A DNA stretch of 64,000 nucleotides from a virus. Below the pieces are notes generated by a model that ran no database searches, was not told the DNA's origin, and was given only the letters and a program-made list of their open reading frames with translations. Positions 15,488-43,275 of this stretch are shown here, piece by piece; position 1 is the first letter of the stretch; every line of letters begins with the position of its first letter. Both the position numbers and the translations under genes were made by a program. The DNA lies in the IMG/VR virus record IMGVR_UViG_3300031772_000001, positions 1-64,000 of that record. One strand, 5' to 3'.

Positions 15488-16630
15488 TTGAGGTGTGTAC
15501 CCTATCCGGCCAAATGCCTATCCTCCACAGTTTATAGTGGACAGACTTTTCTGGCAGGGTTCTTTAGCCGCCCTGTGCAAAATGTTAATGGCTGCGTTAT
15601 AATCCGCGTCCATCTCCACTTTACAATCAATACACTTGTACCGCTCGCCCACACGAGACTCCTTGTGTATTGATCCACACACTGAACAAGTCTGGGAAGT
15701 GTAAGCTGGATTGACCTTTGTAAGAAGAACACCGTTCTCCTCACAAGTTCTCACCAGCTTACCTATTGCCGATAAATAGACCCAATACTGCAACTTGTTC
15801 ATAAACTTTGTCGAAATTCGATGATCCTTCTTAGAATTTCTTTTGACGTTCTTTAGGTCTTCTATAGCAAGACTGTTTACGTTTGACAGGTCTAACTCGT
15901 TCACAACTCGGTTAATTTCATTGTCCCGGAATCTCAAACTCTGCTTAAAATTCTTAGAGTTCCTTACCTTCTTTGATATGTCTGTACAAACTTGCTCAAT
16001 ATCGGTCCCTAAAAACTGACCATCGGAAGTTGAAAGCAATTTCTTGTAGCCAATATCAACTCCCAAAGACTTACCTGTAGATTTTATTACAGGTGCCTCT
16101 TTCTCAAAAGTCAAAAACACAAAATACTTGCCGGATTCGTCTTTGGTTAATTTGATGTTCTTCTTACGCTTCCAATCAGCATACTTCAAATAATGCTTGT
16201 GATACTTGATTGGTAAGTTTATTGTGACTGCTCGATGCTTACCATCCTGAAAATAGGGCAATCGAATATGAATAAACTCATCAAAATGACCATCTTCTTG
16301 TACTTCAATATCAAACATCCGGTCATCCAACGAGATTGAAGTATTTTGTATCTCTGGCTTTGATTTTTTCTGTTTCTTCTGATTGGACCTGATAATCTCA
16401 GATGCTTGCTTATATAAAATTTGTTTCCAAGCAGAATAAGTAAAAAGATTTGAAGGACAATCCTTAGAACTGAGAAACTTCTTCAGTGGAAGTTTCTTAT
16501 CCCAAATTTGATCTATATAAAACTGTAAGTCAACCTTATAGTCTTGAAATAACTGGTCTAATTGCTTAGACTTAGTACCAGTTTGATACTTCAAAATGTG
16601 TTTGGTTGATCTTAACATAATTATCTATGT
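15488..16630 (-). mobile_element. Solo IS200/IS605-family (IS1341-like) TnpB element
   Basis: Right end ends in TCAA (15491-15488); inferred left junction follows TTAT (16634-16631); removing it restores a short ORF; no tnpA in the window. Confidence 0.65.
15518..16618 (-). CDS. tnpB: RNA-guided endonuclease TnpB
   Basis: RuvC-I GVDIG, RuvC-II AIEDL, VNPAYTSQTCSVCG and CIDC zinc finger, RuvC-III DADYNAAINIL. Confidence 0.93.
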   Translation of the reverse strand: MLRSTKHILKYQTGTKSKQLDQLFQDYKVDLQFYIDQIWDKKLPLKKFLSSKDCPSNLFTYSAWKQILYKQASEIIRSNQKKQKKSKPEIQNTSISLDDRMFDIEVQEDGHFDEFIHIRLPYFQDGKHRAVTINLPIKYHKHYLKYADWKRKKNIKLTKDESGKYFVFLTFEKEAPVIKSTGKSLGVDIGYKKLLSTSDGQFLGTDIEQVCTDISKKVRNSKNFKQSLRFRDNEINRVVNELDLSNVNSLAIEDLKNVKRNSKKDHRISTKFMNKLQYWVYLSAIGKLVRTCEENGVLLTKVNPAYTSQTCSVCGSIHKESRVGERYKCIDCKVEMDADYNAAINILHRAAKEPCQKSLSTINCGG

Positions 16631-23329: not shown

Positions 23330-26275
23330 TTACTTTCGATCTTCAGGAGACAAGAACACACCCTTCAAGAAATTCACAGCACTTACCTTCTTTCCTTCAA
23401 AAAGATTACCCATCTTCTCATAGGTTAGTGACCTGAAAACATTGAGAGACGGAACCCTTCTGAGGTCATTCTCTTTGACCACCCTACTGAGGCAGGAACT
23501 AAAAGCAAGAACCGCTTTGTTGAAGTCCATATTTTCCGGCAAAAGTTTTCGGATATTTCTATGCAAATCAGTCCGCTTCAAAACCTCCGCTCGAAGATTA
23601 CCCAAGATTTCCTCAGACAAAACCTTCTTTGCCACACCCTCATAATACTCTGGTGTTGCCTTCTCATAAGCATCAATTGGTGTCAAACTTCGATCATACA
23701 TCTCAGTCATAAAAGCAGAAATCTCTTCGTGATCCTTATGAGACAGGGACAAATTCTTTGCCCTCATCACATTCAAAGCAGAATAGAACTCGGGGTAAAT
23801 TTCAACAAACCGATCATACAAACCCTCACAAACCTTGCTGTCTGTCAACTTATCAAACTCAACAAGCAACGGGCTTATAGCACAAAGAGTAGCATCATCA
23901 AGTTTTGAAAACTCCTGCAAAGCATCTGTATCAACCTCTAAGTTTTCTGAATACTTTTTGATGTTTGCTACAATCACACCTTTATCTGCATCCCCAAACT
24001 TATACACAAGAACATTCTCTACAATAGCAGGAATATTAGAGTTTCCTAACAAAGAATCCGCTATCTCTATACCCCTAAACTCAACACCAAAACGCTTACA
24101 AGATTCAGTCAGCTTCTCAATTCGCTTCTCTTGATTATCCTCGTTTATATGGGAGTTGTTCAAAAGATGAAAAACTTCCACAATTGCGGAATCATAAGAC
24201 AAGCTCTCTTCCACTTCCAAAGCAGAGAAACCGCATCGGCCACACTTACCACCAAACCCTTCACAAGCACACCTTGGGCAAATCATACTCTTTACCCCCA
24301 CCCCAGAGGAAAGAACCTGCTCAAGATCGTACCCACAATCCGTACAGTGCTTTGGATAACGCCCACGATACTTCGGAATCAACATCCCGCACGAAGGACA
24401 CTGGCCCTTGTACTTGATCTTGTCAAAAGCAGTCTGCATCCCCGGAGTCATGCCTTGCTCATTTGTCTGCTCATCCGTCTGCTCCCCAAATCTCTTAGCA
24501 ACCTTTTCTATTGCATTCAACATCCTCTCTTCTTTCTTTGCACACTCAGCACAGAAAAGACCAAACGCCTTATTAGAAAGTTCACCTTCTTTACCACACC
24601 TCGCACATTTACCTGTTTTCTTAGAAGATCCTTCTTCTATCTGCTCCCAATTCATATTATTTGCGAGATACTGAGCATGAAGATCATTTACTACCTTCAT
24701 ATCCTTAATACCAAACTGTTGTGAAAACTGAGTAAGAGTCTTACCAGTATCTTTCAAGTCAGAATGATCCTTAAACCAATCAAACATCTTTCGTGTGATA
24801 TTCACACCAGACTCATTTACCTGCTCATTCTGGTCAATAACACTGCCTTTCTTATGAAAAGGAGGATACGTCACCAGAGCATCACCTTCTTTGTTGACCA
24901 TGTAATAACCAGCCAACGTACTATCTTTTACCCTACTCTCATATCCCATCTTCTTAGCAAGTGCATCAAACTCTTTCAAAGTAATATCTGAGGCAATTAC
25001 CTTCGCTTTTCCAGTATCAGTTGTTTCCTTGTTTACCAAAGCAACTGACACTTTAAGAGTTACTTCTACTACCTGCTCATCAAACTTTTTATCCATCGGT
25101 ATAGCTGCATCAGTCCTTACCCCGGAAGGGGGCTTTTCTCTTTTCGATATAAACCAACTATCTCTGTCCTTCCCCTGCCACGCAATAACACCCTTTGGCA
25201 ATTTACCAGCATACGATTTTACAGCCTTGTATGTCACCAAATATGTCCCACCATCCATGATATTCTTTATCATCTTCTCTAAATCATCTGTATCCTCAAT
25301 TATTACATCCTCTTTTATCTCTGACATCTTCTTTACATTCGTAGCCCAATCAGGCAACTCACCTCTCACCAAATACCAAGTCTTATCCCCGTTCTTTTCT
25401 TGAAACGCATGAGTATCTTGGGGAACCTTACCAATAAACTGTTTCAGGTCTTTCTCACTTCCGATCTTAACAATAGCACTCTCTAAAGACACCAAAATAC
25501 CTTGCAAGTCTGTACTAGCTACCCGCTCTACCACTACCTGCTCACTAACTCCCTCTTTCTTAGTCTGTGATTTAAGCACGTCTTTCAAAAAATCTATAGC
25601 CTTAACAGCATACCCATCAAATATCTTTCTTGTTCCTTTGAAAAGAGCTACCTTTCCAACCTTATCAATATTGCTTCTCTCAAGAGTAGCCTTGAAAGCT
25701 GTATTGTACTCAGTAATGTACTTATCAAGCTCTTCCTCGTCTACCTTACTCTCACCCACCACAGAAGCCTCCGGCTGTACCAAGTGCTCCCCACACTCAG
25801 GACAAAACTTAGGATACCTGCCTGGGTAAGTAGGAACCACAAACCCGCAACTGTCACACTTCTTCCAAACATTACCCTTAGAAACACTTCCGTAAACAGC
25901 CTTTCCCATACCCGGAGTCATCTGCTCATTCAATTTATCCAAAACAACACTGGCAACAGTACAGATTGTTGCTGCTTCCTTTGTTGTAATTACTGATTCC
26001 ATGTACTTACGAAAAAGAGAATCAAGAAATATTCCCAAATCAGAAATTCCTGATATGGAATCCTTATCTACACCCTTGACTTTTTTCATTAAGTCAAGTA
26101 TACTCTTAGAAACTTCTTTTGCTTGGGATTTTACATCGGAAGGGAAGTCAACAACAAAATCTCCAAGAGCCTTCAGGAACTCGGCTCCCTTTTCGAGATC
26201 AGAAATTGACTTCACATACTGCGAAGGAACCGACTTAGAAACGGCATCTTCAAATGCATTCTGTTGACCTAACAT
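23330..26275 (-). CDS. Large modular head-region protein with several zinc ribbons
   Basis: Duplicated MTPGM...CxxCG...YxGRYPKxCxxCG module; many xxE linkers; start taken at MLGQQ. Confidence 0.7.
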   Translation of the reverse strand: MLGQQNAFEDAVSKSVPSQYVKSISDLEKGAEFLKALGDFVVDFPSDVKSQAKEVSKSILDLMKKVKGVDKDSISGISDLGIFLDSLFRKYMESVITTKEAATICTVASVVLDKLNEQMTPGMGKAVYGSVSKGNVWKKCDSCGFVVPTYPGRYPKFCPECGEHLVQPEASVVGESKVDEEELDKYITEYNTAFKATLERSNIDKVGKVALFKGTRKIFDGYAVKAIDFLKDVLKSQTKKEGVSEQVVVERVASTDLQGILVSLESAIVKIGSEKDLKQFIGKVPQDTHAFQEKNGDKTWYLVRGELPDWATNVKKMSEIKEDVIIEDTDDLEKMIKNIMDGGTYLVTYKAVKSYAGKLPKGVIAWQGKDRDSWFISKREKPPSGVRTDAAIPMDKKFDEQVVEVTLKVSVALVNKETTDTGKAKVIASDITLKEFDALAKKMGYESRVKDSTLAGYYMVNKEGDALVTYPPFHKKGSVIDQNEQVNESGVNITRKMFDWFKDHSDLKDTGKTLTQFSQQFGIKDMKVVNDLHAQYLANNMNWEQIEEGSSKKTGKCARCGKEGELSNKAFGLFCAECAKKEERMLNAIEKVAKRFGEQTDEQTNEQGMTPGMQTAFDKIKYKGQCPSCGMLIPKYRGRYPKHCTDCGYDLEQVLSSGVGVKSMICPRCACEGFGGKCGRCGFSALEVEESLSYDSAIVEVFHLLNNSHINEDNQEKRIEKLTESCKRFGVEFRGIEIADSLLGNSNIPAIVENVLVYKFGDADKGVIVANIKKYSENLEVDTDALQEFSKLDDATLCAISPLLVEFDKLTDSKVCEGLYDRFVEIYPEFYSALNVMRAKNLSLSHKDHEEISAFMTEMYDRSLTPIDAYEKATPEYYEGVAKKVLSEEILGNLRAEVLKRTDLHRNIRKLLPENMDFNKAVLAFSSCLSRVVKENDLRRVPSLNVFRSLTYEKMGNLFEGKKVSAVNFLKGVFLSPEDRK

Positions 26276-29200
26276 GGAGTAATTTTGCCCTTTCCTGTAT
26301 TGCAGGAACTCGAAGGTCACTGTGAGAAGGTTTATTGACCCTCTCTTTAATCCAAAACCCAGAACCCACTAAATTTCGGATTTTTTCGGCTCTTACTTTG
26401 GTAGTACCGCTACCGTTGGAGCCATCACCTTCTTCTTGAAGTATATCAAGTTCTGACTCAACACCCTCTTCTTCACCTTCACCCTCCTCGCCACTCCCAC
26501 CTTTTCCTCCACCCTTACCCTCCTCATCCCCTTCATCATCGCCGCTTGGCTTTCCCTTCCTTCTTGGAACCGGAACAGAACCACGAGAACCAAGAGCATC
26601 AGACTTCGAGGAAGAAGACTTATTTCCTAACAACTTATCAATATCAAGATCGGGAAATGCAAATATCTGCTTGAATATGTACTCAACATACATCTTCTTG
26701 TTGATAATTCCTTCCATCTCCCCAGACAAACCAAGCATAGACGTAGCAATACCAATCTTTCTTTCCGTGTACTCCAAACGAGAATCTTCCTCTGCCGAAG
26801 AAATTGGAACCATCCCAATAGACAAATCTTCAACACTTATATCCTGACTGTACTTGTAAGACAGGTGAATTTGAAATAGCCGATACATCCCCTCAATAAG
26901 TGCCCTCTGCACCTTCTTGACCATACGAGCATATCGAATATCCAAACGAGTAAGAGTCTGTGAACCAGAAAACCCCGGTATACTTTCAGAATTGTGAACA
27001 AACACACCACAAGAGAGAGAGAAGTTGTGGTTGTCACTTTCAACAGTTAAATCATAAGCATCTTCAACAACATCAAGATATTCTACATTTACAACTCTAT
27101 GATTGTAACAATTTGCTGCCATCTTCCTTTCAGAAATCATCTTACTATTTGCTTTAGCTCGACAAACCCTCTGGCATCTAACACAGCAAAACCTTGGTGT
27201 CTGTAAGTATGAAGAAATGTCGTTGTAAGGAACCTTCTTCATAAACATCTTCCCACACTCATCACAACAAATCTCAAACTCCTGTGGGTGATAATCACCC
27301 CACCTACCCTGAACCATCTTACCCTTCCAAGAAGCAAACTCAGGACTATCAGGGGAAATAGTCTTCATATAATTAAAGGATTTTCTTCTCCCCTCCTGAA
27401 TAGCCTTAATTATTCCCTGCCTTGCTTTCTCTCTATACTCAGGATTAGCCATCGGGTTATTCTCACCCTTCTGGTAATCCCTGTTAATACCCATCAAAGA
27501 CTTTGATACTTTTGCACCAAACCCATCCGGCTTCTTTCTCCCTTTTCCCAAAACAGACATTCTTTTGGAATACTCAAGCCTCTCCTCTGAAGACATAGCC
27601 TCCCGTCTCTTCCTTGCTGAAACACTTCCCAAAGACCTGCCCATATCTAAAACACTTGCCATCTCTGGATGATACTTAACAAAATGCTCTCGCCTATTCT
27701 CACAAATTGCCAGATTTAAGGCATCATTATTACTCTTGACTTTATCTCTATGATGAACAACTTGCTCAGAAGATAGAACCTTCCCACCATTCAACAAATC
27801 TTCTGCAACAAGACGGTGTACCCGAACATAATGCCGATCCTTATTATCAATAATTCCATAATATCCCTTCTCTGCCCCAGACAACTCAAAGTAATATAGA
27901 GGCATTAAAGATTCCCCAGAGACAAGTTTCTCTGCCTCTTTGTAAGACCCATCTCTTAACATACACCTATGGTCAGGGGTAACGTCAAAATATTCTCCGT
28001 TATCAAGATGCACCCTAACATACTTCGCATTAAGTCGCGTCTTGTTAATATCAGAGATATTCGTGGCGTGAACCCTGCCATCCTTATCACTTGTAAAAAT
28101 TGTCTTGCCCCTGAAATATTCCTTATTCTCAAACATCTCCCTAATAGTAGGTGTAGTTCCATCACATAACCGAATACCAGTGTTTCCTCTCAAACACATT
28201 CCTAAAAATGCGCCGGGGATGCGGATAGCTGCAAGTAGCTTATCCCGAATATACTCAATATCAACTATGTCTTTTATGTTTACATCACCACCAACCGTCT
28301 CAACTCGCATATCCCCTTTTGTACCTGTATAGGGAATAAAAACCTCGTCATTATACTGCAAAGGATTGTACTTCATACGATAGAAATTCACAGGAATATC
28401 TATTGCCTTCTTCTGCATAAATTTCTGCTCAAGATCCTGAATCAAATCCCTACGCTCATCCTTTGTCATACCCTCAGTATTTACATAAAACACACGTATA
28501 AGGGGAGATCGGGCAAGACGAGCAAGAGCAAGAGAGACTTCAAGCAAATTCAGGATACGATAAATCAATCTTGCGTTCTGCAAAATTGACGTACCATACA
28601 TCGAAGTAAGAATCTTTTCAACTAACTTACGCTCACCCTTCGGAACATCCCCACGTCTATTTGCATCAATCATCCTACGGGAAGGAGATTTCTGAGGATC
28701 ACCGCTATCAACATCCCAAGTTGACTTATCAAAAGGTTTTGTATCCTTTGTCTTATCTCCATACTCAGCAGGCTCATCCTCGGCCTCCCCTGTCTTATCC
28801 TCCCCCTCCACAGACTTTTGCATTTCATCTTCCCACATCTTGACCTTTACAGACTCAAAATTGGGTTTGAAGTTGTTGATGAAATGCACATACCCTGAAG
28901 AGTCCATTATCTCTTCCTTACGGGCAGAAATATCCTTCTTGATAAAACAAGCAAGTTTTCCGTCTATGTCAATACGATAAACACTTTTTGGATGTTCCGA
29001 CTCACGAATATTAGTGATCCCTTCACCCTTCTTAGGGTAAACCCTTAACATGAAATCACCATACTTCGCAATATTATAGGTCCACCCCCAAACCTTATTC
29101 TCAAAATCAATTGTTGAAAGAAACTCTTGAAGTTCGTGGCCGTACTTATGCTTTCCACCAATCCATAAAGTACCATTCATTTCATGGGAGTATTGTGTAG

Positions 29201-29483
29201 CATCATCAACAACTAACTCCAAAGCAGATGAAATAATTGGATCTTCTTCCATCTGATCATAATCAGAATACCGAGATTCACGATCTTTTTCCAGTTTCGT
29301 AGCAGCAGAAAACAACTCCCAAACACGACCCTCATTCATCAAAACTTTTACAGTATTCGTTGCCTTATCATCAACAACATACACCTCATTTGACTGACCA
29401 TTTTTTGCATCAGCCTGAAGAGCCTCAAGAACAATATTCTCGTTGACTCTTAACCCACCCTTTTCAAACAGACGAACAGACAT
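26250..29483 (-). CDS. Portal protein (T4 gp20-like) containing an intein
   Basis: YDQMEEDPIISSALELVVDDA; KYGDF; LARLARSPLIRVFYV; DIEYIRDKLLAAIRIP; LTRLDIRYARMVKKVQ. Confidence 0.9.
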   Translation of the reverse strand: MSVRLFEKGGLRVNENIVLEALQADAKNGQSNEVYVVDDKATNTVKVLMNEGRVWELFSAATKLEKDRESRYSDYDQMEEDPIISSALELVVDDATQYSHEMNGTLWIGGKHKYGHELQEFLSTIDFENKVWGWTYNIAKYGDFMLRVYPKKGEGITNIRESEHPKSVYRIDIDGKLACFIKKDISARKEEIMDSSGYVHFINNFKPNFESVKVKMWEDEMQKSVEGEDKTGEAEDEPAEYGDKTKDTKPFDKSTWDVDSGDPQKSPSRRMIDANRRGDVPKGERKLVEKILTSMYGTSILQNARLIYRILNLLEVSLALARLARSPLIRVFYVNTEGMTKDERRDLIQDLEQKFMQKKAIDIPVNFYRMKYNPLQYNDEVFIPYTGTKGDMRVETVGGDVNIKDIVDIEYIRDKLLAAIRIPGAFLGMCLRGNTGIRLCDGTTPTIREMFENKEYFRGKTIFTSDKDGRVHATNISDINKTRLNAKYVRVHLDNGEYFDVTPDHRCMLRDGSYKEAEKLVSGESLMPLYYFELSGAEKGYYGIIDNKDRHYVRVHRLVAEDLLNGGKVLSSEQVVHHRDKVKSNNDALNLAICENRREHFVKYHPEMASVLDMGRSLGSVSARKRREAMSSEERLEYSKRMSVLGKGRKKPDGFGAKVSKSLMGINRDYQKGENNPMANPEYREKARQGIIKAIQEGRRKSFNYMKTISPDSPEFASWKGKMVQGRWGDYHPQEFEICCDECGKMFMKKVPYNDISSYLQTPRFCCVRCQRVCRAKANSKMISERKMAANCYNHRVVNVEYLDVVEDAYDLTVESDNHNFSLSCGVFVHNSESIPGFSGSQTLTRLDIRYARMVKKVQRALIEGMYRLFQIHLSYKYSQDISVEDLSIGMVPISSAEEDSRLEYTERKIGIATSMLGLSGEMEGIINKKMYVEYIFKQIFAFPDLDIDKLLGNKSSSSKSDALGSRGSVPVPRRKGKPSGDDEGDEEGKGGGKGGSGEEGEGEEEGVESELDILQEEGDGSNGSGTTKVRAEKIRNLVGSGFWIKERVNKPSHSDLRVPAIQERAKLLHVRSTECI
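26991..28196 (-). mobile_element. Intein (402 aa) with HNH homing endonuclease in the portal gene
   Basis: GM|CLRGNT...TPDHRCML...VHHRDKVKSNNDALNL...GVFVHN|S. Confidence 0.9.
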
Positions 29484-29772: not shown

Positions 29773-32298
29773 CTATATAGAAGAAAACAAACCGTGGTCT
29801 ATCCCACCATAATCACCCGACTCTAAAACCTTCACCAACTTCAACTCTTTCCCTGTCTTTGGATCAATCCTCTTAGGCATAACCCAACTATCATCAGACT
29901 GAGCTTCCTGTCTCAACCCAAGTGTAAACACTATATCCCCAACAACCTCAGCATTAGTACGGCCAGCAAAATAAGAAGGATCAGCTTCAACAGCGTTCGC
30001 ACAAGCGGCAACAAGAGCATCACTACAACCCTTGTCCCCTCTTGTACCATCATCATTTACATCAGGGTGATCTACCTTCTTAGATTCTACGAAATGATTA
30101 AGGTTAAAAAACTCCCGCTCCAAAATGGAGTAGTTGTACATAATAAGTCTATCTTCATAGATCAAATCCACTACTTGAAGATAAGCAGAGTCATCCTTAT
30201 CAACAGACCTTCTCGCAGCATTAAAAGAGTTTGCTGTAAATATCTGAATTGTATCTTCTGATTGGTACTGATCTAACGAAATCTTCCCAAACCTCATACC
30301 CATCTGCCGAAGTTCAAAGATAAACTTACGGATTTTAGTGAATGAAATCCTATCAGGACTCTTGGGGGCCATCACAGACAAAACAATATCAGTCTCCAAT
30401 TTTGGTATTCTCAACATCGTATTCGGGTCTTCGATCATCTCCGCTATGTGAACAATAGCAAGACCCAAAGTATCATGTGTTGTTGCATAGTCAAGGTGAA
30501 CATACCTCAATGCTTCAGGGTGACGTATTAGCCCCTTGTAACTCGCCTTCCCACTCTCAATCACTTTGTTAAACATCAATTCTGGTAGAAAATAATCTAT
30601 AAGATGCTGTGTTGTTTTCAGGGATATTGTAAAAGTCTCTTTTGTAAAAGGATGTCTTATCTCTGAAGAAATACACTTCTGCCAAGCATACTTCGAGGAA
30701 AACAACTTACCAGACGGTGATATAGACACACCAGCAATATTCCTCAAAGCTCCATACACATCATCTATAAAGTTTTGCTTAAAGTCCATCGGAACTGCTA
30801 CGAAATTATCTATAAACTTAGCTGGTAACTTTACCATAACATCAGACACAGCTTTATCCGTGTCCACACTCTTACCATCTGCAATCATCTTATCCCTAAT
30901 ATCAATAATCTTGGCTCTTATAGCATCAGAACTCATAGGAATAAGACCATTTACAGACGTAACAATAAAAGCATCTTCATTTTCAGAACCCTGAAATACA
31001 AAGAACCTATCATTAGAGTAGTTCCCCGGCTTAACATCCCAAAGAGTCGTAATAAAAATCGTCGCTGAGTTGTACTGTCTGGCTTGCCTAATTCGAGAAG
31101 AAACAAATGAAGACTGAATTGAAGCAGACGAAATAATAGCAGAAAATCCAGGGTCATAACCCTTCATCATAAACCGAGACATACGACGGTCTGTAACTTC
31201 CCTGTAAATCTTAGCCGCCTTTGCAGCATCACCAACTGAGGCACCTGAACCACCCCTACGGTAGAAGTCAGCCTCATCCATAATACACCCAAACAAGTTC
31301 GTTGATATAACAGAGAGATTATCAGAACCCGGAAGGATTGCTATACGTTGAGGAAATTTGAGGATGGACTTGTATGTTCGGTCACGCGGGAACTCTTTTC
31401 GGAAGTACGGTATTGAATCCACCATCGACCTAAACTGCCCAAACCCAACTCTCTCCGCATGTGTCATGTTAATTGACAAATATGCAAACACTATGTCCGT
31501 CATGTCAGACAAACCAAACAATCTCTGAGGATAGTCATAACAAGACAATTCATAAAGTTTTCTAAGCCAACACACGAAAGCGAAGGTAGTCTTACCTGCA
31601 CCTATTGAATTATGAACAAAAACACCAGAGGAAAGAGCAAAGTTATGGTATTTCTCTACCTCAAAATCATACACATCCTCTTTTTCCTCCAACTTTCTAA
31701 CCACCACTACTCTTACAGGACAGGTTAAAAAACTCATCAAACCATCACCCGCCAAAAGCTCTTCCGCACTTCTATAAGAACCATCATCCAACATCCACAA
31801 ATGATCAGGAGTACATCGTTCTTTACCTCCATTACTAAGAACTACCTCTACAATATCTTTTTGCAAACCTGTTTTTCTACATCTACTTGCAACACCAATG
31901 CCATAATGACCATCCAAAGAACAAGATACTACATCAAAAACATGACCAGATTCAGCTAACTCTTTTATTGTTCTATCCCGAAGGTCATATAACCGTATCT
32001 TAGTAGAACCAACAAAACATCCAGTAATTATAGTTTCAGGTTTTTTAGAGTCTATATAAGTTGGTAATGCTTCCTTCCAGTACGGATACAAGTCTTTCGC
32101 AAGTGATCCCAAATAATATGTGTAATTTACCCACTTATTAACAGGTACAATCTCTTTTACCTGAGTAGCTTTTAATACACCAGTCTCTTCAGAGATTGCA
32201 CGACCCAACAAGCTCTCAATAGCGGAAAATTGAGAATCACCTATACCCTCAAAGAACTTTAGGGTTTCAGGAGAGATTTTTTCTGGGATCTCTGACAT
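29773..32298 (-). CDS. terL: Terminase large subunit containing a mini-intein
   Basis: Walker A TG|SIGAGKTT after splicing; Walker B CIMDEAD; RNase H-like YVHLDYA...ISLDQYQS...KVDHP...KGCSDAL. Confidence 0.88.
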   Translation of the reverse strand: MSEIPEKISPETLKFFEGIGDSQFSAIESLLGRAISEETGVLKATQVKEIVPVNKWVNYTYYLGSLAKDLYPYWKEALPTYIDSKKPETIITGCFVGSTKIRLYDLRDRTIKELAESGHVFDVVSCSLDGHYGIGVASRCRKTGLQKDIVEVVLSNGGKERCTPDHLWMLDDGSYRSAEELLAGDGLMSFLTCPVRVVVVRKLEEKEDVYDFEVEKYHNFALSSGVFVHNSIGAGKTTFAFVCWLRKLYELSCYDYPQRLFGLSDMTDIVFAYLSINMTHAERVGFGQFRSMVDSIPYFRKEFPRDRTYKSILKFPQRIAILPGSDNLSVISTNLFGCIMDEADFYRRGGSGASVGDAAKAAKIYREVTDRRMSRFMMKGYDPGFSAIISSASIQSSFVSSRIRQARQYNSATIFITTLWDVKPGNYSNDRFFVFQGSENEDAFIVTSVNGLIPMSSDAIRAKIIDIRDKMIADGKSVDTDKAVSDVMVKLPAKFIDNFVAVPMDFKQNFIDDVYGALRNIAGVSISPSGKLFSSKYAWQKCISSEIRHPFTKETFTISLKTTQHLIDYFLPELMFNKVIESGKASYKGLIRHPEALRYVHLDYATTHDTLGLAIVHIAEMIEDPNTMLRIPKLETDIVLSVMAPKSPDRISFTKIRKFIFELRQMGMRFGKISLDQYQSEDTIQIFTANSFNAARRSVDKDDSAYLQVVDLIYEDRLIMYNYSILEREFFNLNHFVESKKVDHPDVNDDGTRGDKGCSDALVAACANAVEADPSYFAGRTNAEVVGDIVFTLGLRQEAQSDDSWVMPKRIDPKTGKELKLVKVLESGDYGGIDHGLFSSI
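31609..32019 (-). mobile_element. Mini-intein (137 aa, no endonuclease) inserted in the terminase Walker A motif
   Basis: TG|CFVGST...CTPDHLW...VYDFEVEKYHNFALSSGVFVHN|SIGAGKT. Confidence 0.92.
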
Positions 32299-33528: not shown

Positions 33529-33535
33529 AAGTAAA

Positions 33536-33623
33536 TACGGGGGATGGGACTCGAACCCACAGGCTCCCTTTCGGGAAAAGCGAATTTTAAGTTCGCCGTC
33601 TATGCCAATTCGACTACCCCCGC
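33536..33623 (-). tRNA. tRNA-Leu(TAA)
   Basis: GCGGGGG acceptor; GCGAA-CT-TAA-AA-TTCGC; long variable arm; GGTTCGAGTCC. Confidence 0.92.
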
Positions 33624-33628
33624 AAAAA

Positions 33629-33708
33629 TACGGGTGAAGGGACTCGAACCCCCACGCTTTCGCATCAGATTTTGAATCTGAGATGTCTACCAATTCCATC
33701 ACACCCGC
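33629..33708 (-). tRNA. tRNA-Leu(CAA)
   Basis: GCGGGTG acceptor; TCAGA-TT-CAA-AA-TCTGA; GGTTCGAGTCC. Confidence 0.92.
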
Positions 33709-33713
33709 AAGTA

Positions 33714-38197: not shown

Positions 38198-38212
38198 AAG
38201 TTTCTCCTGTGT

Positions 38213-38948
38213 TTAATTGATTTCTGAAAGTAACACCTTCATCTTCTCTTGCTTACCCTGCATTAACTTCTCATAACAATCATCACACACCACGTCACAC
38301 TCCTCTACAGGCTTATCAAATTCTTGCTTCATCTCGGCAATCGCCTCTTCGTCAGACCACGCTTTTTCAAAAGTACCTCCGCAGACACAACACTTGAAAG
38401 TATTGTCAGGCATAATTACTTCTCCACTCTTACGCTCAAGTTACCATTACACTTAGGACATTGAACCACAAACTCTCTTGTGTCTGGCTTATCAACATGA
38501 TTGACGTTATAGATACCAAACTCGAAGACAAGAACATTCAGGACAATCAAACGTGCGGATATATGAGGATTATGGTCACTTTTGTAAAGATCAATCTGAG
38601 ATTCAAAGTTTACAAAATTGATCCCATCCTTAAACTTACGAATAACATAGAAAAACGCAAGCTCCCAAGCATAGTTCTTAGATATTTTCGTTCCTATGAC
38701 CACCGTTCTTTCCTTCCTTATTCTTGTTCTTATCTCTTCATCAACGAATGGTCAAGGCAATATTTCTTCCTTCGTACAACACGAAATTCAGCGGTGCATC
38801 CTTCCCACTGACACCGCCTCATAGAAGTATATCGTCTTTTGCTCTGTATTTTAGTTTCTTCTATGTAATACTTATCTATGTACTGATGTCCTTTACTTAC
38901 TATCTCATCAATCCTTGACATGACACACCACTTACTCAAACACCACAA
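38213..38948 (-). other. Three small Zn-ribbon hypothetical genes (38213-38413, 38416-38703, 38730-38948)
   Basis: CxxC-type pairs; packed on the coding strand. Confidence 0.55.
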
Positions 38949-39191
38949 GAAAGCATGTTACATAGCTTTGATCTTCTACTTTTCTCTCTGCTTCCAAACA
39001 AGCCTCGCAACGCATTATCCACCCGTTTATCTGAATCAACTCGGTGTAAGATTTTTCTTCAAAAGGGAAAAGTCGGCACACAGAAACTGTCCAAAAGTCT
39101 TAGTCCCAAAAAATTTGCAAAACTTGTTAGGCTCACTGACGTTAAAGCACCACAATTAAGATCAAACCGTACTTCTATCATAGAAATCCCC

Positions 39192-39512
39192 TTACTTTGA
39201 TCCCACTCTCTGCTTTCCGCACATAGGACAGAATTTTACACCGTTATCTGTTGCTGTACCTTCAGAAAAACACCACTTATCCCCACACTCCGTATCATAA
39301 GAGTCTGTTGTAGAGTCGTATATCCAATGACAAGTCTTCTTTGGCTTCGCACACACCTCTCCTTCCACTATGATCTCACCTCTTGGACGAACTGGAGGTG
39401 GAGGAGGTGGAGGAGGTGGAGGAGGTGGAGGAGGTGGAGGAGGTGCCGGAACTTTCTTCATTCGCTCCAATTTCTCTGGTGACGGTAAGGATCGTGGCGC
39501 GTTTGTAGTCAT
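39192..39512 (-). CDS. Poly-Pro (17 P) plus zinc-ribbon protein
   Basis: CCT/CCA codon run at 39393-39443; FCPMCGK. Confidence 0.65.
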   Translation of the reverse strand: MTTNAPRSLPSPEKLERMKKVPAPPPPPPPPPPPPPPPPPVRPRGEIIVEGEVCAKPKKTCHWIYDSTTDSYDTECGDKWCFSEGTATDNGVKFCPMCGKQRVGSK

Positions 39513-39934: not shown

Positions 39935-40714
39935 TGAAACTCCTTCCACACATAACCATGATTCTCTGTGTCAGGATCTACCTTCCACTTCTCATGTTCT
40001 AACCTACCATCATCCTGGTCTTCATTCTCTCTTATATCAGGCTCTTTACCTGCCCCATGAAGAAAATTCTCGTCATCCTCGTACCCCATATACTACGTTC
40101 TTTCTCTCTCAAAGGCACACAAGCAGTTTACATAAGACACTGAGTTATATCCTTTAGAACGAAATATCGGCCAGAACTTCTTACCATCAAACTCTGTTAT
40201 CTGTTTTATCTTCTTTGGTATGTGCAACTCCCCATACTTTTCACCTTTTGGTATAGGAACACCATTCACCTCACACTGAGTATACCTCACCGCTTTCATG
40301 TGCAAATAGCGACGTTCAAACTCCTGCTTAGGCATCTAACAGCATTCTCCTCCAACGCTCAAGTGCAGCTACGAATTCCTCTTTTTTATCTTTACCTCTT
40401 CCACAAGCAACATCTGTCCCGTTAATAAAAACCACTCCCCACGGGTCAACGTCAAATAATTCCATGACTCTCTTAATCAACTTTTCGGGGTCTGTTGGCA
40501 ATGCTTCAAAGTATGATTATCAAACATGTACCAATAATTTCTTTTTAGAGGACTCTTAGCCTTGCTAACCTCACGAATGAAAAACTTTGCCTGCTCAAGA
40601 CCTTTAATGAAAGAGTCCTGATCAATACCCTTTGGGGCCATATTAGCTTTACACCACTCAATTTCCTTATCTACAGCATCAAGATACTCCTGCATATTCT
40701 TCCTCCATTATTTC

Positions 40715-40918
40715 TCAACCTATAGTGTCAAGCCGTGTTTTGGGCTTTAGCTGTTGTACGAAGTGGCGCAAATTCCGCAGTGTCCGCCACGCCTTATCCA
40801 ACAGCGTGTACCAATGATAAACTATGAATGCACGCGGGAATCCTGACCAGAAATGCCACTTACCGCAATACGGATAGTTACAGAACGATTTACTTTCAAT
40901 AATGAAACCTCTCCACAT
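40715..40918 (-). CDS. Cassette ORF 1, hypothetical
   Basis: Crosses the core at FVQQLK. Confidence 0.5.
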   Translation of the reverse strand: MWRGFIIESKSFCNYPYCGKWHFWSGFPRAFIVYHWYTLLDKAWRTLRNLRHFVQQLKPKTRLDTIG

Positions 40919-40977
40919 AAACTTCTACTTTCCGGCGCGGCCTATAAATTCAGGCTTTGCGCCATTTTGTACAACGT

Positions 40978-41214
40978 CTACGCAATGGGCGATAGTTTGC
41001 CCCTACAATTACACTGGCCTACCACGACCACATGTATGCCATCGGTGTCCTCAAAATAATGAGGGCAAATTTCGGCCCTTGCGGTGTTGGGTGCCGGTTT
41101 GTCAACCACCACGCGGTTGGCCGCGCTCCAACCGATCTCCGCACTCACCATATCTATCTGATAATCACCAGGCCCTTGCGTCTTCCACCACTCACGGAAT
41201 GTCTTCGCGGCCAT
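40978..41214 (-). CDS. Cassette ORF 2, hypothetical
   Basis: GGAGG RBS; MAAKTFREWW; crosses the core at APNTA. Confidence 0.65.
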   Translation of the reverse strand: MAAKTFREWWKTQGPGDYQIDMVSAEIGWSAANRVVVDKPAPNTARAEICPHYFEDTDGIHVVVVGQCNCRGKLSPIA

Positions 41215-41270
41215 ATCACCTCCAAAGTTGACAAACTGGCATCCCAACGTCTTGCGAAACGTGCGCCGTG

Positions 41271-41486
41271 CTACAGATTATAGTGGCACACCATACACGC
41301 TTCGCCGAGCGAATACCGCCCTGCACGCTCACCACAGTTCGGACATGGCGCACTTTTGCTGTTGGTTGTCTGTTGAGCGAGTACAGCGGTTTTCAGAGTT
41401 TGCCATGCTTCATCCGCAAGAACGACATTACCTACATGTATAGCACAATTTTTCTCGATAGCATCAATAGCCTCGATTGGCGTCAT
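41271..41486 (-). CDS. Cassette ORF 3, C-terminal zinc ribbon
   Basis: AGGAG RBS; crosses the core at TTNSK; CPNCG..CMVC. Confidence 0.65.
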   Translation of the reverse strand: MTPIEAIDAIEKNCAIHVGNVVLADEAWQTLKTAVLAQQTTNSKSAPCPNCGERAGRYSLGEACMVCHYNL

Positions 41487-41555
41487 GGCATACTCCTATA
41501 ATAAATTTTAGAGCGAAATTGCAAACAACGTTCCGGCAAATTGCCGAAGTGTGCA

Positions 41556-41780
41556 TCACATTTTGGCATTTGCCTGTTGTGTGCTGTTTTTTGCGCCACC
41601 GCTGCTTTCAGAGGTTGGCGGGGATGGAACGAGCATCCAATGCGTTATTTTGCAATTATACTCGCAATGGCCAGCAATAAAATCCTGTGCGTGAATAGTC
41701 TCGATACTGCCGTTGTCAAAATGAACTAATATCGGGCCATCGTAATCCGGGACAACACCTTCACCTTTTTTGTACCACAT
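41556..41780 (-). CDS. Cassette ORF 4, DUF551-like
   Basis: GGAGG RBS; ITHWMLVPSPP; crosses the core at STQQA. Confidence 0.65.
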   Translation of the reverse strand: MWYKKGEGVVPDYDGPILVHFDNGSIETIHAQDFIAGHCEYNCKITHWMLVPSPPTSESSGGAKNSTQQANAKM

Positions 41781-41832
41781 AGCCAACCTCCTATAATTTG
41801 AAAGCGCAAAAAATTGCATACAACGTTTTGCT

Positions 41833-42090
41833 CTATTGCGACGTGCGTGACAACCACTTGTCAACCTTATTACGGTAGCACTCCGAACAACGCGGAGATT
41901 TGGTCCGCACAAAAACGCACTCTCCGCATGGCGTAATAGCGCTGTTGGGTGCCGTGGAATGAGCATCCGCCAGATAGTGGCCACAGTCGCTGCACAAAGA
42001 ATAGTTGCTGTCCCGAACTATGCATACATCTCGCTTAATGCAATCAAGTTTTTTGTGGCCACCTATAACCTCCAAGCGAATGAATGGCAT
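41833..42090 (-). CDS. Cassette ORF 5, Cys-rich hypothetical (start uncertain)
   Basis: Crosses the core at APNSA. Confidence 0.5.
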   Translation of the reverse strand: MPFIRLEVIGGHKKLDCIKRDVCIVRDSNYSLCSDCGHYLADAHSTAPNSAITPCGECVFVRTKSPRCSECYRNKVDKWLSRTSQ

Positions 42091-42104
42091 CCCAACGATC
42101 CGCG

Positions 42105-42329
42105 CTACTGGTTCCGTTGCTCGATCTCACGCAGAAAATCACAAAACCTCATTTTTTGCGCATCAGACCGAGAAGAAGACAATGCCAGTTTGCGCACGAG
42201 AGCAATGGCATCTATAGCGCTGTTGGGTGCCGTTGTTGACAATTCCTCCGGTTTGGAGGCGCAGCGATCGCACGAACCTGCCGGTATGCCGTGCTGACAC
42301 CACCCGTTGAGCAATACGCTATCATTCAT
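42105..42329 (-). CDS. Cassette ORF 6, hypothetical
   Basis: GGAGG RBS; crosses the core at APNSA. Confidence 0.65.
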   Translation of the reverse strand: MNDSVLLNGWCQHGIPAGSCDRCASKPEELSTTAPNSAIDAIALVRKLALSSSRSDAQKMRFCDFLREIEQRNQ

Positions 42330-42396
42330 TTTGCGCCTCCTCGGCATATCGACTTGTCAACTATGGCATCCCAACGTCCGAGCAATGTACGCAGTG

Positions 42397-42609
42397 CTAC
42401 TGCTTGTGACAAATCGGAACTCCGGTACAGCAACAACTTTTGATAGGATACTTGCAGCTCGCATACAGAGAGCATTGCGTACTTGCTTTGTTGGTGGATG
42501 TAAATCTTTCCACCATAGCGTTCTGTGCGGCATTCCAGACGTTGCTATACTTCTCCATATCTCCGCCGCCGCCAACGTTGCTCCACCACTGCTCAAATGT
42601 CATTTCCAT
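42397..42609 (-). CDS. Cassette ORF 7, hypothetical
   Basis: MEMTFEQWW; crosses the core at STNKA. Confidence 0.65.
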   Translation of the reverse strand: MEMTFEQWWSNVGGGGDMEKYSNVWNAAQNAMVERFTSTNKASTQCSLYASCKYPIKSCCCTGVPICHKQ

Positions 42610-42672
42610 GCCGCACCTACAATTCCAAAGAAAGGTTTATTTCCACCAACGTTTGCGCAACAGCCGAAGCCG

Positions 42673-42936
42673 CTACGCCCCCTTGCTACGCTTACGCGGT
42701 TTTGGCTTTGCGCTGTTGTTTGTTGTTGCCGTGCGCTCAACTGCTTTCTGCGCGGCGGCGATTTCGCTACGTAACGATTCAATAGCTTTGTCAACGCCGT
42801 GACCAAGGTTGTCCTTTAACATACTGTCGAAAAGCATAGAATACACTTGGTCGGTGATAATGTTTTCGGCGTTGACATAAGGATATCCAAACTCACGCAT
42901 ATTGCGGATAGCCGCAGAAATCAATTTATCTCGCAT
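42673..42936 (-). CDS. Cassette ORF 8, hypothetical
   Basis: AAGGA RBS; MRDKLISAAIRNMREFGYP; crosses the core at TNNSA. Confidence 0.65.
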   Translation of the reverse strand: MRDKLISAAIRNMREFGYPYVNAENIITDQVYSMLFDSMLKDNLGHGVDKAIESLRSEIAAAQKAVERTATTNNSAKPKPRKRSKGA

Positions 42937-42987
42937 ACATTCCTTTCCGCCGCGCCTATAATATGGTCGCACGGCAATTGCAAACAA

Positions 42988-43275
42988 CTACCTCAATAAC
43001 GCACTCTCAAACCGTAGACATTTCTCTTTTTCTCTCCTTAATTCCTTTACTTCCCGAAACTTACTTGCATTATCAACCTCTAACCAAGTAACCCTCTGTT
43101 GTAACCTGTCAATCTCTTTTCTTAACCAAGCAACCGCATCCGAAGTACCATTACGCTTATTATCCTTACTCTCACTCTCATTCTCACTTGTAAGTCTTTT
43201 TGCAATTCCGAGTAACCAAGTGTTATCCCTGAGATACACACGCGAATTTACAACAACATCAATGCCCCGCACCAC
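42988..43275 (-). CDS. Hypothetical coiled-coil protein
   Basis: Its TAG stop overlaps the first GTTG of the cassette array. Confidence 0.55.
   Translation of the reverse strand: MVRGIDVVVNSRVYLRDNTWLLGIAKRLTSENESESKDNKRNGTSDAVAWLRKEIDRLQQRVTWLEVDNASKFREVKELRREKEKCLRFESALLR

Follow-up and report, generated by a model that had tools for sequence, protein, structure and literature searches.

Between positions 40716 and 42988 of the stretch analysed here (the window: 64,000 nucleotides, the first 64 kb of IMG/VR record IMGVR_UViG_3300031772_000001, a 167,660-bp phage genome with terminal repeats that is rated complete), eight small genes stand in a row, punctuated by hairpins with AAC/GTT cores, which raises the question of whether this phage carries a set of mobile gene cassettes and, if so, whether it is an integron that holds them. 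An initial annotation, made from the letters alone, had proposed an integron-like cassette array with a two-tier hairpin architecture. The array is confirmed to be present in the sequence. We consider it likely, with a probability of about 70%, that it belongs to an integron-like but non-canonical family of phage-borne gene-capture systems, here without an integrase, in which the cassettes are mobile and the recombinase presumably acts in trans. The row of eight genes looks like a gene-swapping system of the integron type, though not a classical one, because the same kind of row is found in other phages directly behind an Xer-like recombinase.

All eight cassettes lie on the minus strand in the same orientation, with the first core at 42988 and the last at 40716-40719, and their parts follow one order: GTTG, an arm, the 5' part of the gene, the matching arm, CAAC, a hairpin that contains the 3' part of the gene and, after (A)C, the GTTG of the next cassette. 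Two stems can thus be drawn in a cassette. Stem A pairs the arm of about 21 nt at GTTG with a cassette-specific partner that ends in CAAC, and encloses a ribosome-binding site, the start codon and the N-terminal coding part; Stem B is the second hairpin, from CAAC to the next GTTG. The initial annotation had not described the units as coding, which all of them are: each has one open reading frame (ORF) of 67-87 aa that starts within the body, downstream of the arm, of a TATAGG-like motif and of the ribosome-binding site, crosses CAAC into the module and terminates within Stem B, either in the hairpin loop or near the 3' arm. The part of the protein encoded in the hairpin is Cys-rich in cassettes C2, C3, C5 and C7 (the cassettes run from C8 at the first core to C1 at the last). 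A Pfam search of the eight cassette proteins found no family above threshold, the weak match of C4 to DUF551 being the only one.

The seven CAAC..GTTG hairpin modules described at the outset (53-133 nt) do share a common fold on the plus strand, which consists of a 5-bp CAACG/TGTTG closure, a bulge of 3-4 nt on the 5' side, a stem of about 6 bp, a 1-nt bulge and a long stem; its z-scores range from -1.9 to -4.8, and the minus strand folds less well. Rfam, of which the attC covariance model is not part, returned nothing for either strand. The bodies between the modules had been said to carry, in six of eight cases, their own terminal inverted repeats, and the six longest inverted repeats in 40600-43100 are indeed the six body pairs (18-25 nt, 81-89% complementary); bodies 3 and 5 are without standard arms, body 3 having a displaced stem. 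These repeats are far better than those in shuffled sequence, a comparison that the initial annotation had suggested: an ungapped scan of the whole genome for 21-nt inverted repeats anchored at GTTG..CAAC gave four, each with 18/21 positions paired and all in the array region, whereas 20 shuffles gave 0-2 hits at the looser threshold of at least 16/21. A gapped genome scan recovered six arm pairs, every one in the array. One limit had to be redrawn, the array ending at 40716, with a degenerate terminal module and a last core, and not at 40753.

Do these cassettes behave as units of exchange? Homologues of C8 were found by protein search on short metagenome contigs. In one of them (L119), the copy is 100% identical from GTTG onward and is preceded by a different cassette; in another (L121), it is 94.7% identical, the alignment extends from core to core (42988-42647) and the flanking cassettes are unrelated. 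Neither contig contains any other match to this genome. A further contig, L154, was recovered from the sample that also yielded L119 and matches window 41529-40258 at 99.9% identity; homology begins at the GTTG of C3 and is preceded by unrelated DNA ending in GTA/GTTG (the slash marks the boundary), so that its array begins three cassettes from the end. The three independent homology breakpoints, at 42988, 42647 and 41530, are all on GTTG cores. The initial annotation had held that breakpoints unrelated to the cores would speak against it, and in related genomes they fall exactly on the cores. These alignments show exact core-to-core exchange, with the cassette as its unit. Two contig ends also coincide with cassette landmarks, a 6,580-bp ENA contig stopping exactly at 42647 and L119 stopping in the hairpin loop of C8, but they carry no weight here, since a hairpin by itself is enough to interrupt an assembly. 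Relatives of C3 in L131 and L132, in which both stem segments are almost unchanged and the interior and the module differ, hint that CAAC may be an additional crossover point.

The same architecture recurs in other phages. From 16 phage loci we collected 56 distinct Stem A cassettes, compared with none in shuffled versions; as controls, 737 kb of random or unrelated viral loci contained 8 arm pairs, five of them from one repeat, and 619 kb around cellular Xer genes contained 3. A search pattern that combined the core with one arm type and the TATAGG motif matched 12 IMG/VR contigs, 10 of which, sized 6 to 219 kb, have the same kind of array, and a 14-mer core pattern gave chance hits only in that database. 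When GTDB genomes were scanned with the arm-plus-motif pattern, no chromosomal array was found, only two small phage-like contigs binned into metagenome-assembled genomes (MAGs), both with arrays.

Across this collection, Stem A has a constant layout of 9 bp, a fixed A.A/A.C mismatch and 10 bp. Positions 1-4 are GTTG/CAAC. At positions 5-7 and 13-21, Watson-Crick pairs account for at least 86-97% of cases (at least 91% for positions 13-21), every position showing all four pair types. The mismatch is equally regular, with A.A at position 10 in 28/35 and A.C at position 11 in 31/35, and position 12 is T-A. The covariation of Stem A is strong, and its base pairing is under selection as nucleic acid. 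G.U-type wobble pairs are no commoner in its covarying part than other mismatches (4 on the sense strand and 6 on the antisense strand, with 11 other mismatches), so that Stem A looks like DNA, not RNA. The CAAC that closes it is read in all three codon frames (25/15/14), and its conservation is therefore not a by-product of protein sequence.

Stem B is attC-like in its general plan, which consists of a core box of 4-5 bp, an asymmetric unpaired spacer, a 6-bp box, a bulge and a stem that varies. Followed along the sense strand, it opens with CAAC-A, one further base and a 6-bp box, continues with a short stem in which two A.C mismatches are frequent on the sense strand, corresponding to G.T on the antisense one, and ends with a bulge of 1-3 nt on the 3' arm and a 3' spacer whose last base before GTTG is C in 37/37 modules. 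Its spacer is asymmetric, with 3-5 nt on one side against 0-2 nt on the other, its bulge and the crossover core are on the same arm, and in 30/36 modules its antisense strand is more stable than its sense strand (p=7e-5 with DNA parameters). In the canonical attC site, the bottom strand folds so that a roughly symmetric central spacer stays unpaired and extrahelical bases lie on the arm opposite the cleaved R box. Here, the AAC/GTT triplets are invariant as CAAC/GTTG, and the flanking purine/pyrimidine pattern of the R box fits GTTGGGT-type arms only. The likeness to attC sites put forward by the initial annotation holds for the hairpins and their AAC/GTT cores; the layout is not canonical, the R boxes mostly depart from the consensus and the associated enzyme is not an IntI.

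Which enzyme could read such sites? In other phages, the same type of array lies directly behind an Xer-like tyrosine recombinase. Clustering of array-flanking ORFs across loci pointed to a sole shared large gene, which encodes a protein of 280-300 aa directly upstream of the arrays in L132 and L141. The two proteins, 28% identical to each other, contain PF13495 and PF00589 (a SAM-like N-domain and a catalytic domain) and score best with archaeal XerA, then with XerC/XerD. They match the integron-integrase model TIGR02249 in two stretches only, skipping profile positions 180-254, which are the IntI-specific region, and 2a3v likewise matches them in two stretches. Altogether, a tyrosine recombinase gene lies immediately 5' of the array, on the same strand as the cassettes, at five related loci (L132, L141, L149, L150/L151 and L152/L153), or six counting a near-identical duplicate contig. 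The catalytic residues R138, K162, H233, R236, H259 and Y268 do not vary among 7 sequences whose identity to the L141 enzyme is 29-81%. About 40 relatives of the L141 type, with identities of at least 48%, were found in metagenomic data, and the three that were examined in context (81%, 55% and 51% identity) are all on phage contigs with a same-strand array directly after them; a search of IMG/VR for loci related to the L141 integrase found no relatives, and among 80 more distant cellular Xer-like loci only 1 has an arm pair of this type. The integrase relatives do not allow the host to be inferred, the cellular ones being only 31-44% identical and taxonomically scattered. Note that a 16-kb contig binned to a Spirochaetes MAG also contains an Xer-like recombinase followed by a typical GTTG..GCAAT arm pair (L225:5001-7317); it is probably another phage array.

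The start of the arrays is conserved as well. For the L141-clade enzymes, the stop codon is separated from the first cassette by the site ATAACTTA/GTTG (or GTTA), a small palindrome to which the cassette core contributes the right half; with the divergent L132 enzyme, the site is ATAAC-AAGTA/GTTG. Arrays without an L141-clade integrase, namely those of the window, L125 and L154, plus L132 with its own divergent integrase, open with GTA/GTTG, and internal array boundaries read AC/GTTG or CC/GTTG. In the window, the attI-like boundary that starts the array is at 42985..43003 on the minus strand (TTGAGGTA/GTTG), where it is overlapped by the stop codon of a non-cassette gene of 94/95 aa (42988-43275, minus strand). 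Taken together, these sequence comparisons show a linkage of the arrays to an Xer-like recombinase and to an attI-like site.

A possible mechanism can be drawn from these features. An Xer-like tyrosine recombinase would exchange strands inside the GTTG core, on a folded single strand, and its substrate would be the folded antisense strand, which is the plus strand of the window. Tyrosine recombinases cleave 3' of the binding arm, at the border between arm and spacer; the antisense strand is taken to be the reactive one because it folds better and because the boundary fits this cleavage rule on that strand only. Whole cassettes would be cut out and inserted at the attI-like site heading an array. 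In the excised single-stranded circle, Stem A and Stem B would stack across the core to give a rod of about 40 bp with two loops. Folded as single-stranded circles, all eight cassettes are well below shuffled sequences (z from -1.7 to -12.6), and the dumbbell with a stem of about 40 bp that the initial annotation had imagined is the minimum-energy circular fold of most of them. Within the array, only the core box of 4-5 bp can pair between neighbours, so that completion of the site by the private arm may have to await excision. Excision would, we infer, proceed as a single-stranded circle. A broader picture, tentative and, taken as a whole, falling somewhat short of an even chance, would be that (i) large virulent phages have their own dedicated system of gene capture in common; (ii) an Xer-like enzyme without the IntI domain recombines two-tier folded sites at the GTTG core; (iii) the private Stem A completes the site only in the excised cassette, yielding a nuclease-resistant dumbbell; (iv) the C-terminal protein modules encoded in the hairpins are separately exchangeable at CAAC; and (v) small early proteins, probably involved in host takeover or anti-defence, are thereby shuffled, as genes and as domains, among unrelated phages.

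Several points weigh against a system of mobile cassettes moved by a dedicated enzyme. Neither a circular junction nor a single-stranded intermediate was observed. The initial annotation had remarked that no integrase is in the window, so that one must act in trans, and the complete genome likewise encodes no tyrosine recombinase, serine recombinase or Y1 transposase (PF01797); the enzyme would therefore be supplied in trans, by a co-infecting phage or the host, or else the array is currently static. Near-identical genomes have an unchanged cassette order, and the array here may thus be inactive. The recombinases linked to arrays elsewhere, as judged from profile matches, lack the IntI domain that integron integrases use for folded attC sites, and in principle they could have another function, for example integration or dimer resolution, and merely adjoin the arrays. 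Finally, the stem of the C3 family covers the ribosome-binding site and the start codon, which looks like control at the RNA level, and the TATAGG-like motif, present at a fixed distance in 24/56 cassettes, suggests that each cassette has its own promoter, unlike integron cassettes.

Part of this would be accounted for by a regulatory or structural mosaic without a dedicated recombinase, whose stems act in RNA (processing, stability, translation) or stall replication and whose cassettes are exchanged where short sequences are shared, through homologous or copy-choice recombination, in the way suggested for the early-promoter stem-loop elements (PeSLs) of T4-like phages, which provide a precedent (PMC2839356, PMC4122927). 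Such a mosaic fits the presence of ORFs and ribosome-binding sites within the stems, the sequestration of the ribosome-binding site and ATG by the C3-family stem, the constant distance of the TATAGG-like motif from the core and the lack of a recombinase in this genome. We nevertheless hold it to be unlikely: only 4-6 nt are common at the boundaries, the arms are cassette-specific, wobble pairs are not enriched in the covarying Stem A, and for Stem B the greater stability is that of the antisense strand. Neither sigma-70-type promoters (2 vs 3.3 expected) nor intrinsic terminators (3 vs 2.7) are enriched, and a tyrosine recombinase with a matching half-site stands directly before the arrays in the five related loci. 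Less probable again is that the array is a remnant of a canonical integron, i.e. a cluster of attC sites lacking an integron-integrase (CALIN) with ordinary attC sites served by a host IntI. The conserved AAC/GTT triplets, the attC-sized hairpins, the single ORF per cassette and the boundaries in a GTT core would all suit a CALIN, and phage CALINs recombined by IntI1 have been published (PMC9892861), but most R boxes misfit RYYYAAC/GTTRRRY, the unpaired spacer is asymmetric with the bulged bases on the arm of the crossover core, which is the mirror of attC, and the 21-bp Stem A is an addition not present in integrons. Moreover, the linked recombinases, closest to XerA, are without the IntI insertion, and phage TJE1, which bears a published CALIN, has no such arm pairs. 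As for an IS200/IS605-type transposase dependent on hairpins and acting on single strands, or the TnpB-associated element of this phage, the idea that either moves the cassettes strikes us as very improbable. No Y1 transposase is encoded in the genome, there is no TnpA homologue near any array among the 16 loci, and the stem sequences vary between cassettes, unlike the ends of insertion sequences; these points outweigh the resemblance created by hairpin-flanked ends and tetranucleotide boundaries. The genome does contain a TnpB-like ORF (15518-16618), but TnpB is a nuclease and not a transposase, and this one is 24 kb away and not recurrent beside arrays elsewhere. Two further candidates were ruled out: terminal inverted repeats of a transposon family or of miniature inverted-repeat transposable elements, each pair being different, and inversion of the shufflon type between the mutually inverted GTTG and CAAC, as duplex sites would not need unique covarying inner arms.

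The individual cassettes, all on the minus strand, are laid out as follows. C8 (42647..42988) has Stem A arms at 42968-42988 and 42715-42735 and Stem B at 42647-42718, and the stop codon of its 87-aa ORF (42673-42936) lies in the hairpin loop. In C7 (42372..42650), the Stem A arms are at 42630-42650 and 42490-42510, and Stem B (42372-42493) encodes the Cys-rich tail of a 70-aa product (ORF 42397-42609). C6 (42093..42375) pairs 42351-42375 with 42222-42245, its Stem B covers 42093-42225 and its ORF of 74 aa is at 42105-42329. The arms of C5 (41821..42096) pair over the outer 11 nt or so only; Stem B is at 41821-41947, and the ORF (42090 down to 41833, i.e. 41833-42090) encodes up to 85 aa, its start being uncertain, with CxxC..CxxC motifs. 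C4 (41527..41824) combines Stem A arms at 41804-41824 and 41576-41596 with a short Stem B (41527-41579), and the stop of its 74-aa ORF (41556-41780), the one with the weak DUF551 match, is again in the hairpin loop. C3 (41245..41530) is the cassette with the displaced stem, in which the ribosome-binding site and ATG pair with a segment about 40 nt before CAAC; it has Stem B at 41245-41364 and an ORF of 71 aa (41271-41486) with a CxxC..CxxC tail. C2 (40972..41248) has Stem A arms at 41227-41248 and 41086-41106, Stem B at 40972-41089 and an ORF of 78 aa (40978-41214). C1 (40716..40975), whose Stem A arms are at 40956-40975 and 40753-40772, closes the array with the short, degenerate terminal module (40716-40756) that ends in the last GTTG (40719-40716); the stop codon of its 67-aa ORF (40715-40918) overlaps this last core. 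Just past the last cassette, TTGACACTATAGG (window 40712-40731, minus strand) is similar to the 3' half of a phage promoter of the SP6/T7 type. Several genes elsewhere in this genome also have TATAGG and then a ribosome-binding site upstream.

The content of arrays in other phages is more varied. HNH endonuclease genes occur as cassettes in two of them (L134:716-1264 and L141:4779-5168). The L150 array includes, behind a GTTA-type core, an N6/N4 DNA methyltransferase gene (L150:11739-12578) whose DNA is 70-76% identical to that of the methyltransferase of the present phage (window 59265-60083, minus strand), which has no flanking cores. A C3-like cassette of L131 contains a tandem duplication of about 50 nt that begins at a CAACAG core (L131:3660-3760).

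The genome around the array offers few landmarks. Nearly all window genes are on the minus strand and the GC skew is strongly negative; in the 41-43 kb region, the skew is much weaker and the G+C content is 0.49 vs about 0.41. A megablast search against 50,697 phage records found no match for this phage, and a search of IMG/VR for loci related through a neighbouring zeta-toxin-like gene found no relatives. PHROG and Pfam matches are few, comprising a portal protein with an HNH insert, a clamp loader and the TnpB-like ORF (366 aa, minus strand), which has a Cas12f1-like TNB domain and matches PHROG 'transposase'. The portal-protein ORF with the internal HNH endonuclease region (26250-29483, minus strand) adjoins an ORF of 841 aa with an intein splicing domain (29773-32298, minus strand). 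Two adjacent tRNA-Leu genes, with anticodons TAA and CAA, are at 33535-33709 (minus strand). A second variable spot lies outside the array, at about 38200-39500, between a Lar-like gene and the zeta-toxin-like kinase gene: of two near-identical ENA genomes, one has genes of 106/40/49 aa there and the other genes of 95/84/79 aa.

The usual view of integrons is that of bacterial devices relying on a single specialised integrase domain. The array described here points to a parallel system, widespread in uncultivated phages, that would work with a simpler Xer-like enzyme and with a folded site of another build. If so, the base-pair precision with which large virulent phages exchange small accessory genes would have an explanation, and the IntI insertion would not be required for reading folded single-stranded sites. 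GTTG/CAAC cores with two stems would then be a simple signature for mining phage accessory genes, including likely anti-defence genes, and the many natural site variants a ready mutational series for studies of structure-specific recombination.

Our literature searches found no paper describing this two-stem GTTG/CAAC cassette architecture, which nonetheless shares features with three known systems. With integrons and CALINs, it has in common co-oriented arrays with one gene per cassette, sites that fold into imperfect hairpins and have AAC/GTT cores, bulged bases and a spacer left unpaired, cassette boundaries within a GTT-containing core and cassettes that move as units; in both, a tyrosine recombinase of the Xer/IntI branch heads complete arrays and integrase-less copies occur. 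It departs from integrons in its recombinase, which is without the IntI-specific domain, closest to archaeal XerA, and located 5' of the array in the same orientation; in its GTTG/CAAC core, asymmetric spacer and bulges on the opposite arm; in the specific 21-bp stem with a fixed A.A/A.C mismatch that each cassette adds; and in its ORFs, which cross the core so that C-terminal parts are encoded in the hairpin, many cassettes having in addition a promoter-like motif. The attP(+) site of the CTX phage is a hairpin that imitates a duplex site, with an unpaired central region, and it is recombined by XerCD, a Xer-type enzyme that has no IntI insertion. The parallel lies in the use of such an enzyme on folded single-stranded phage DNA, but in CTX the whole phage integrates at the host dif site, whereas here many different hairpins are arrayed in the phage genome. 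In virulent phages, CALINs have been reported whose sites IntegronFinder detects and IntI1 recombines (Qi et al. 2023, PMC9892861). Among phages, module swapping has its closest precedent in the PeSLs, conserved stem-loops of about 50 nt that combine an early promoter and a terminator and are said to recombine homologously (PMC2839356, PMC4122927). In both cases, repeated stem-loops are the points at which a large virulent phage swaps the small accessory genes of a hyperplastic region as modules; the arrays described here differ in sharing no more than 4-6 nt, in having stems that are unique and covary, and in their linkage to a site-specific recombinase.

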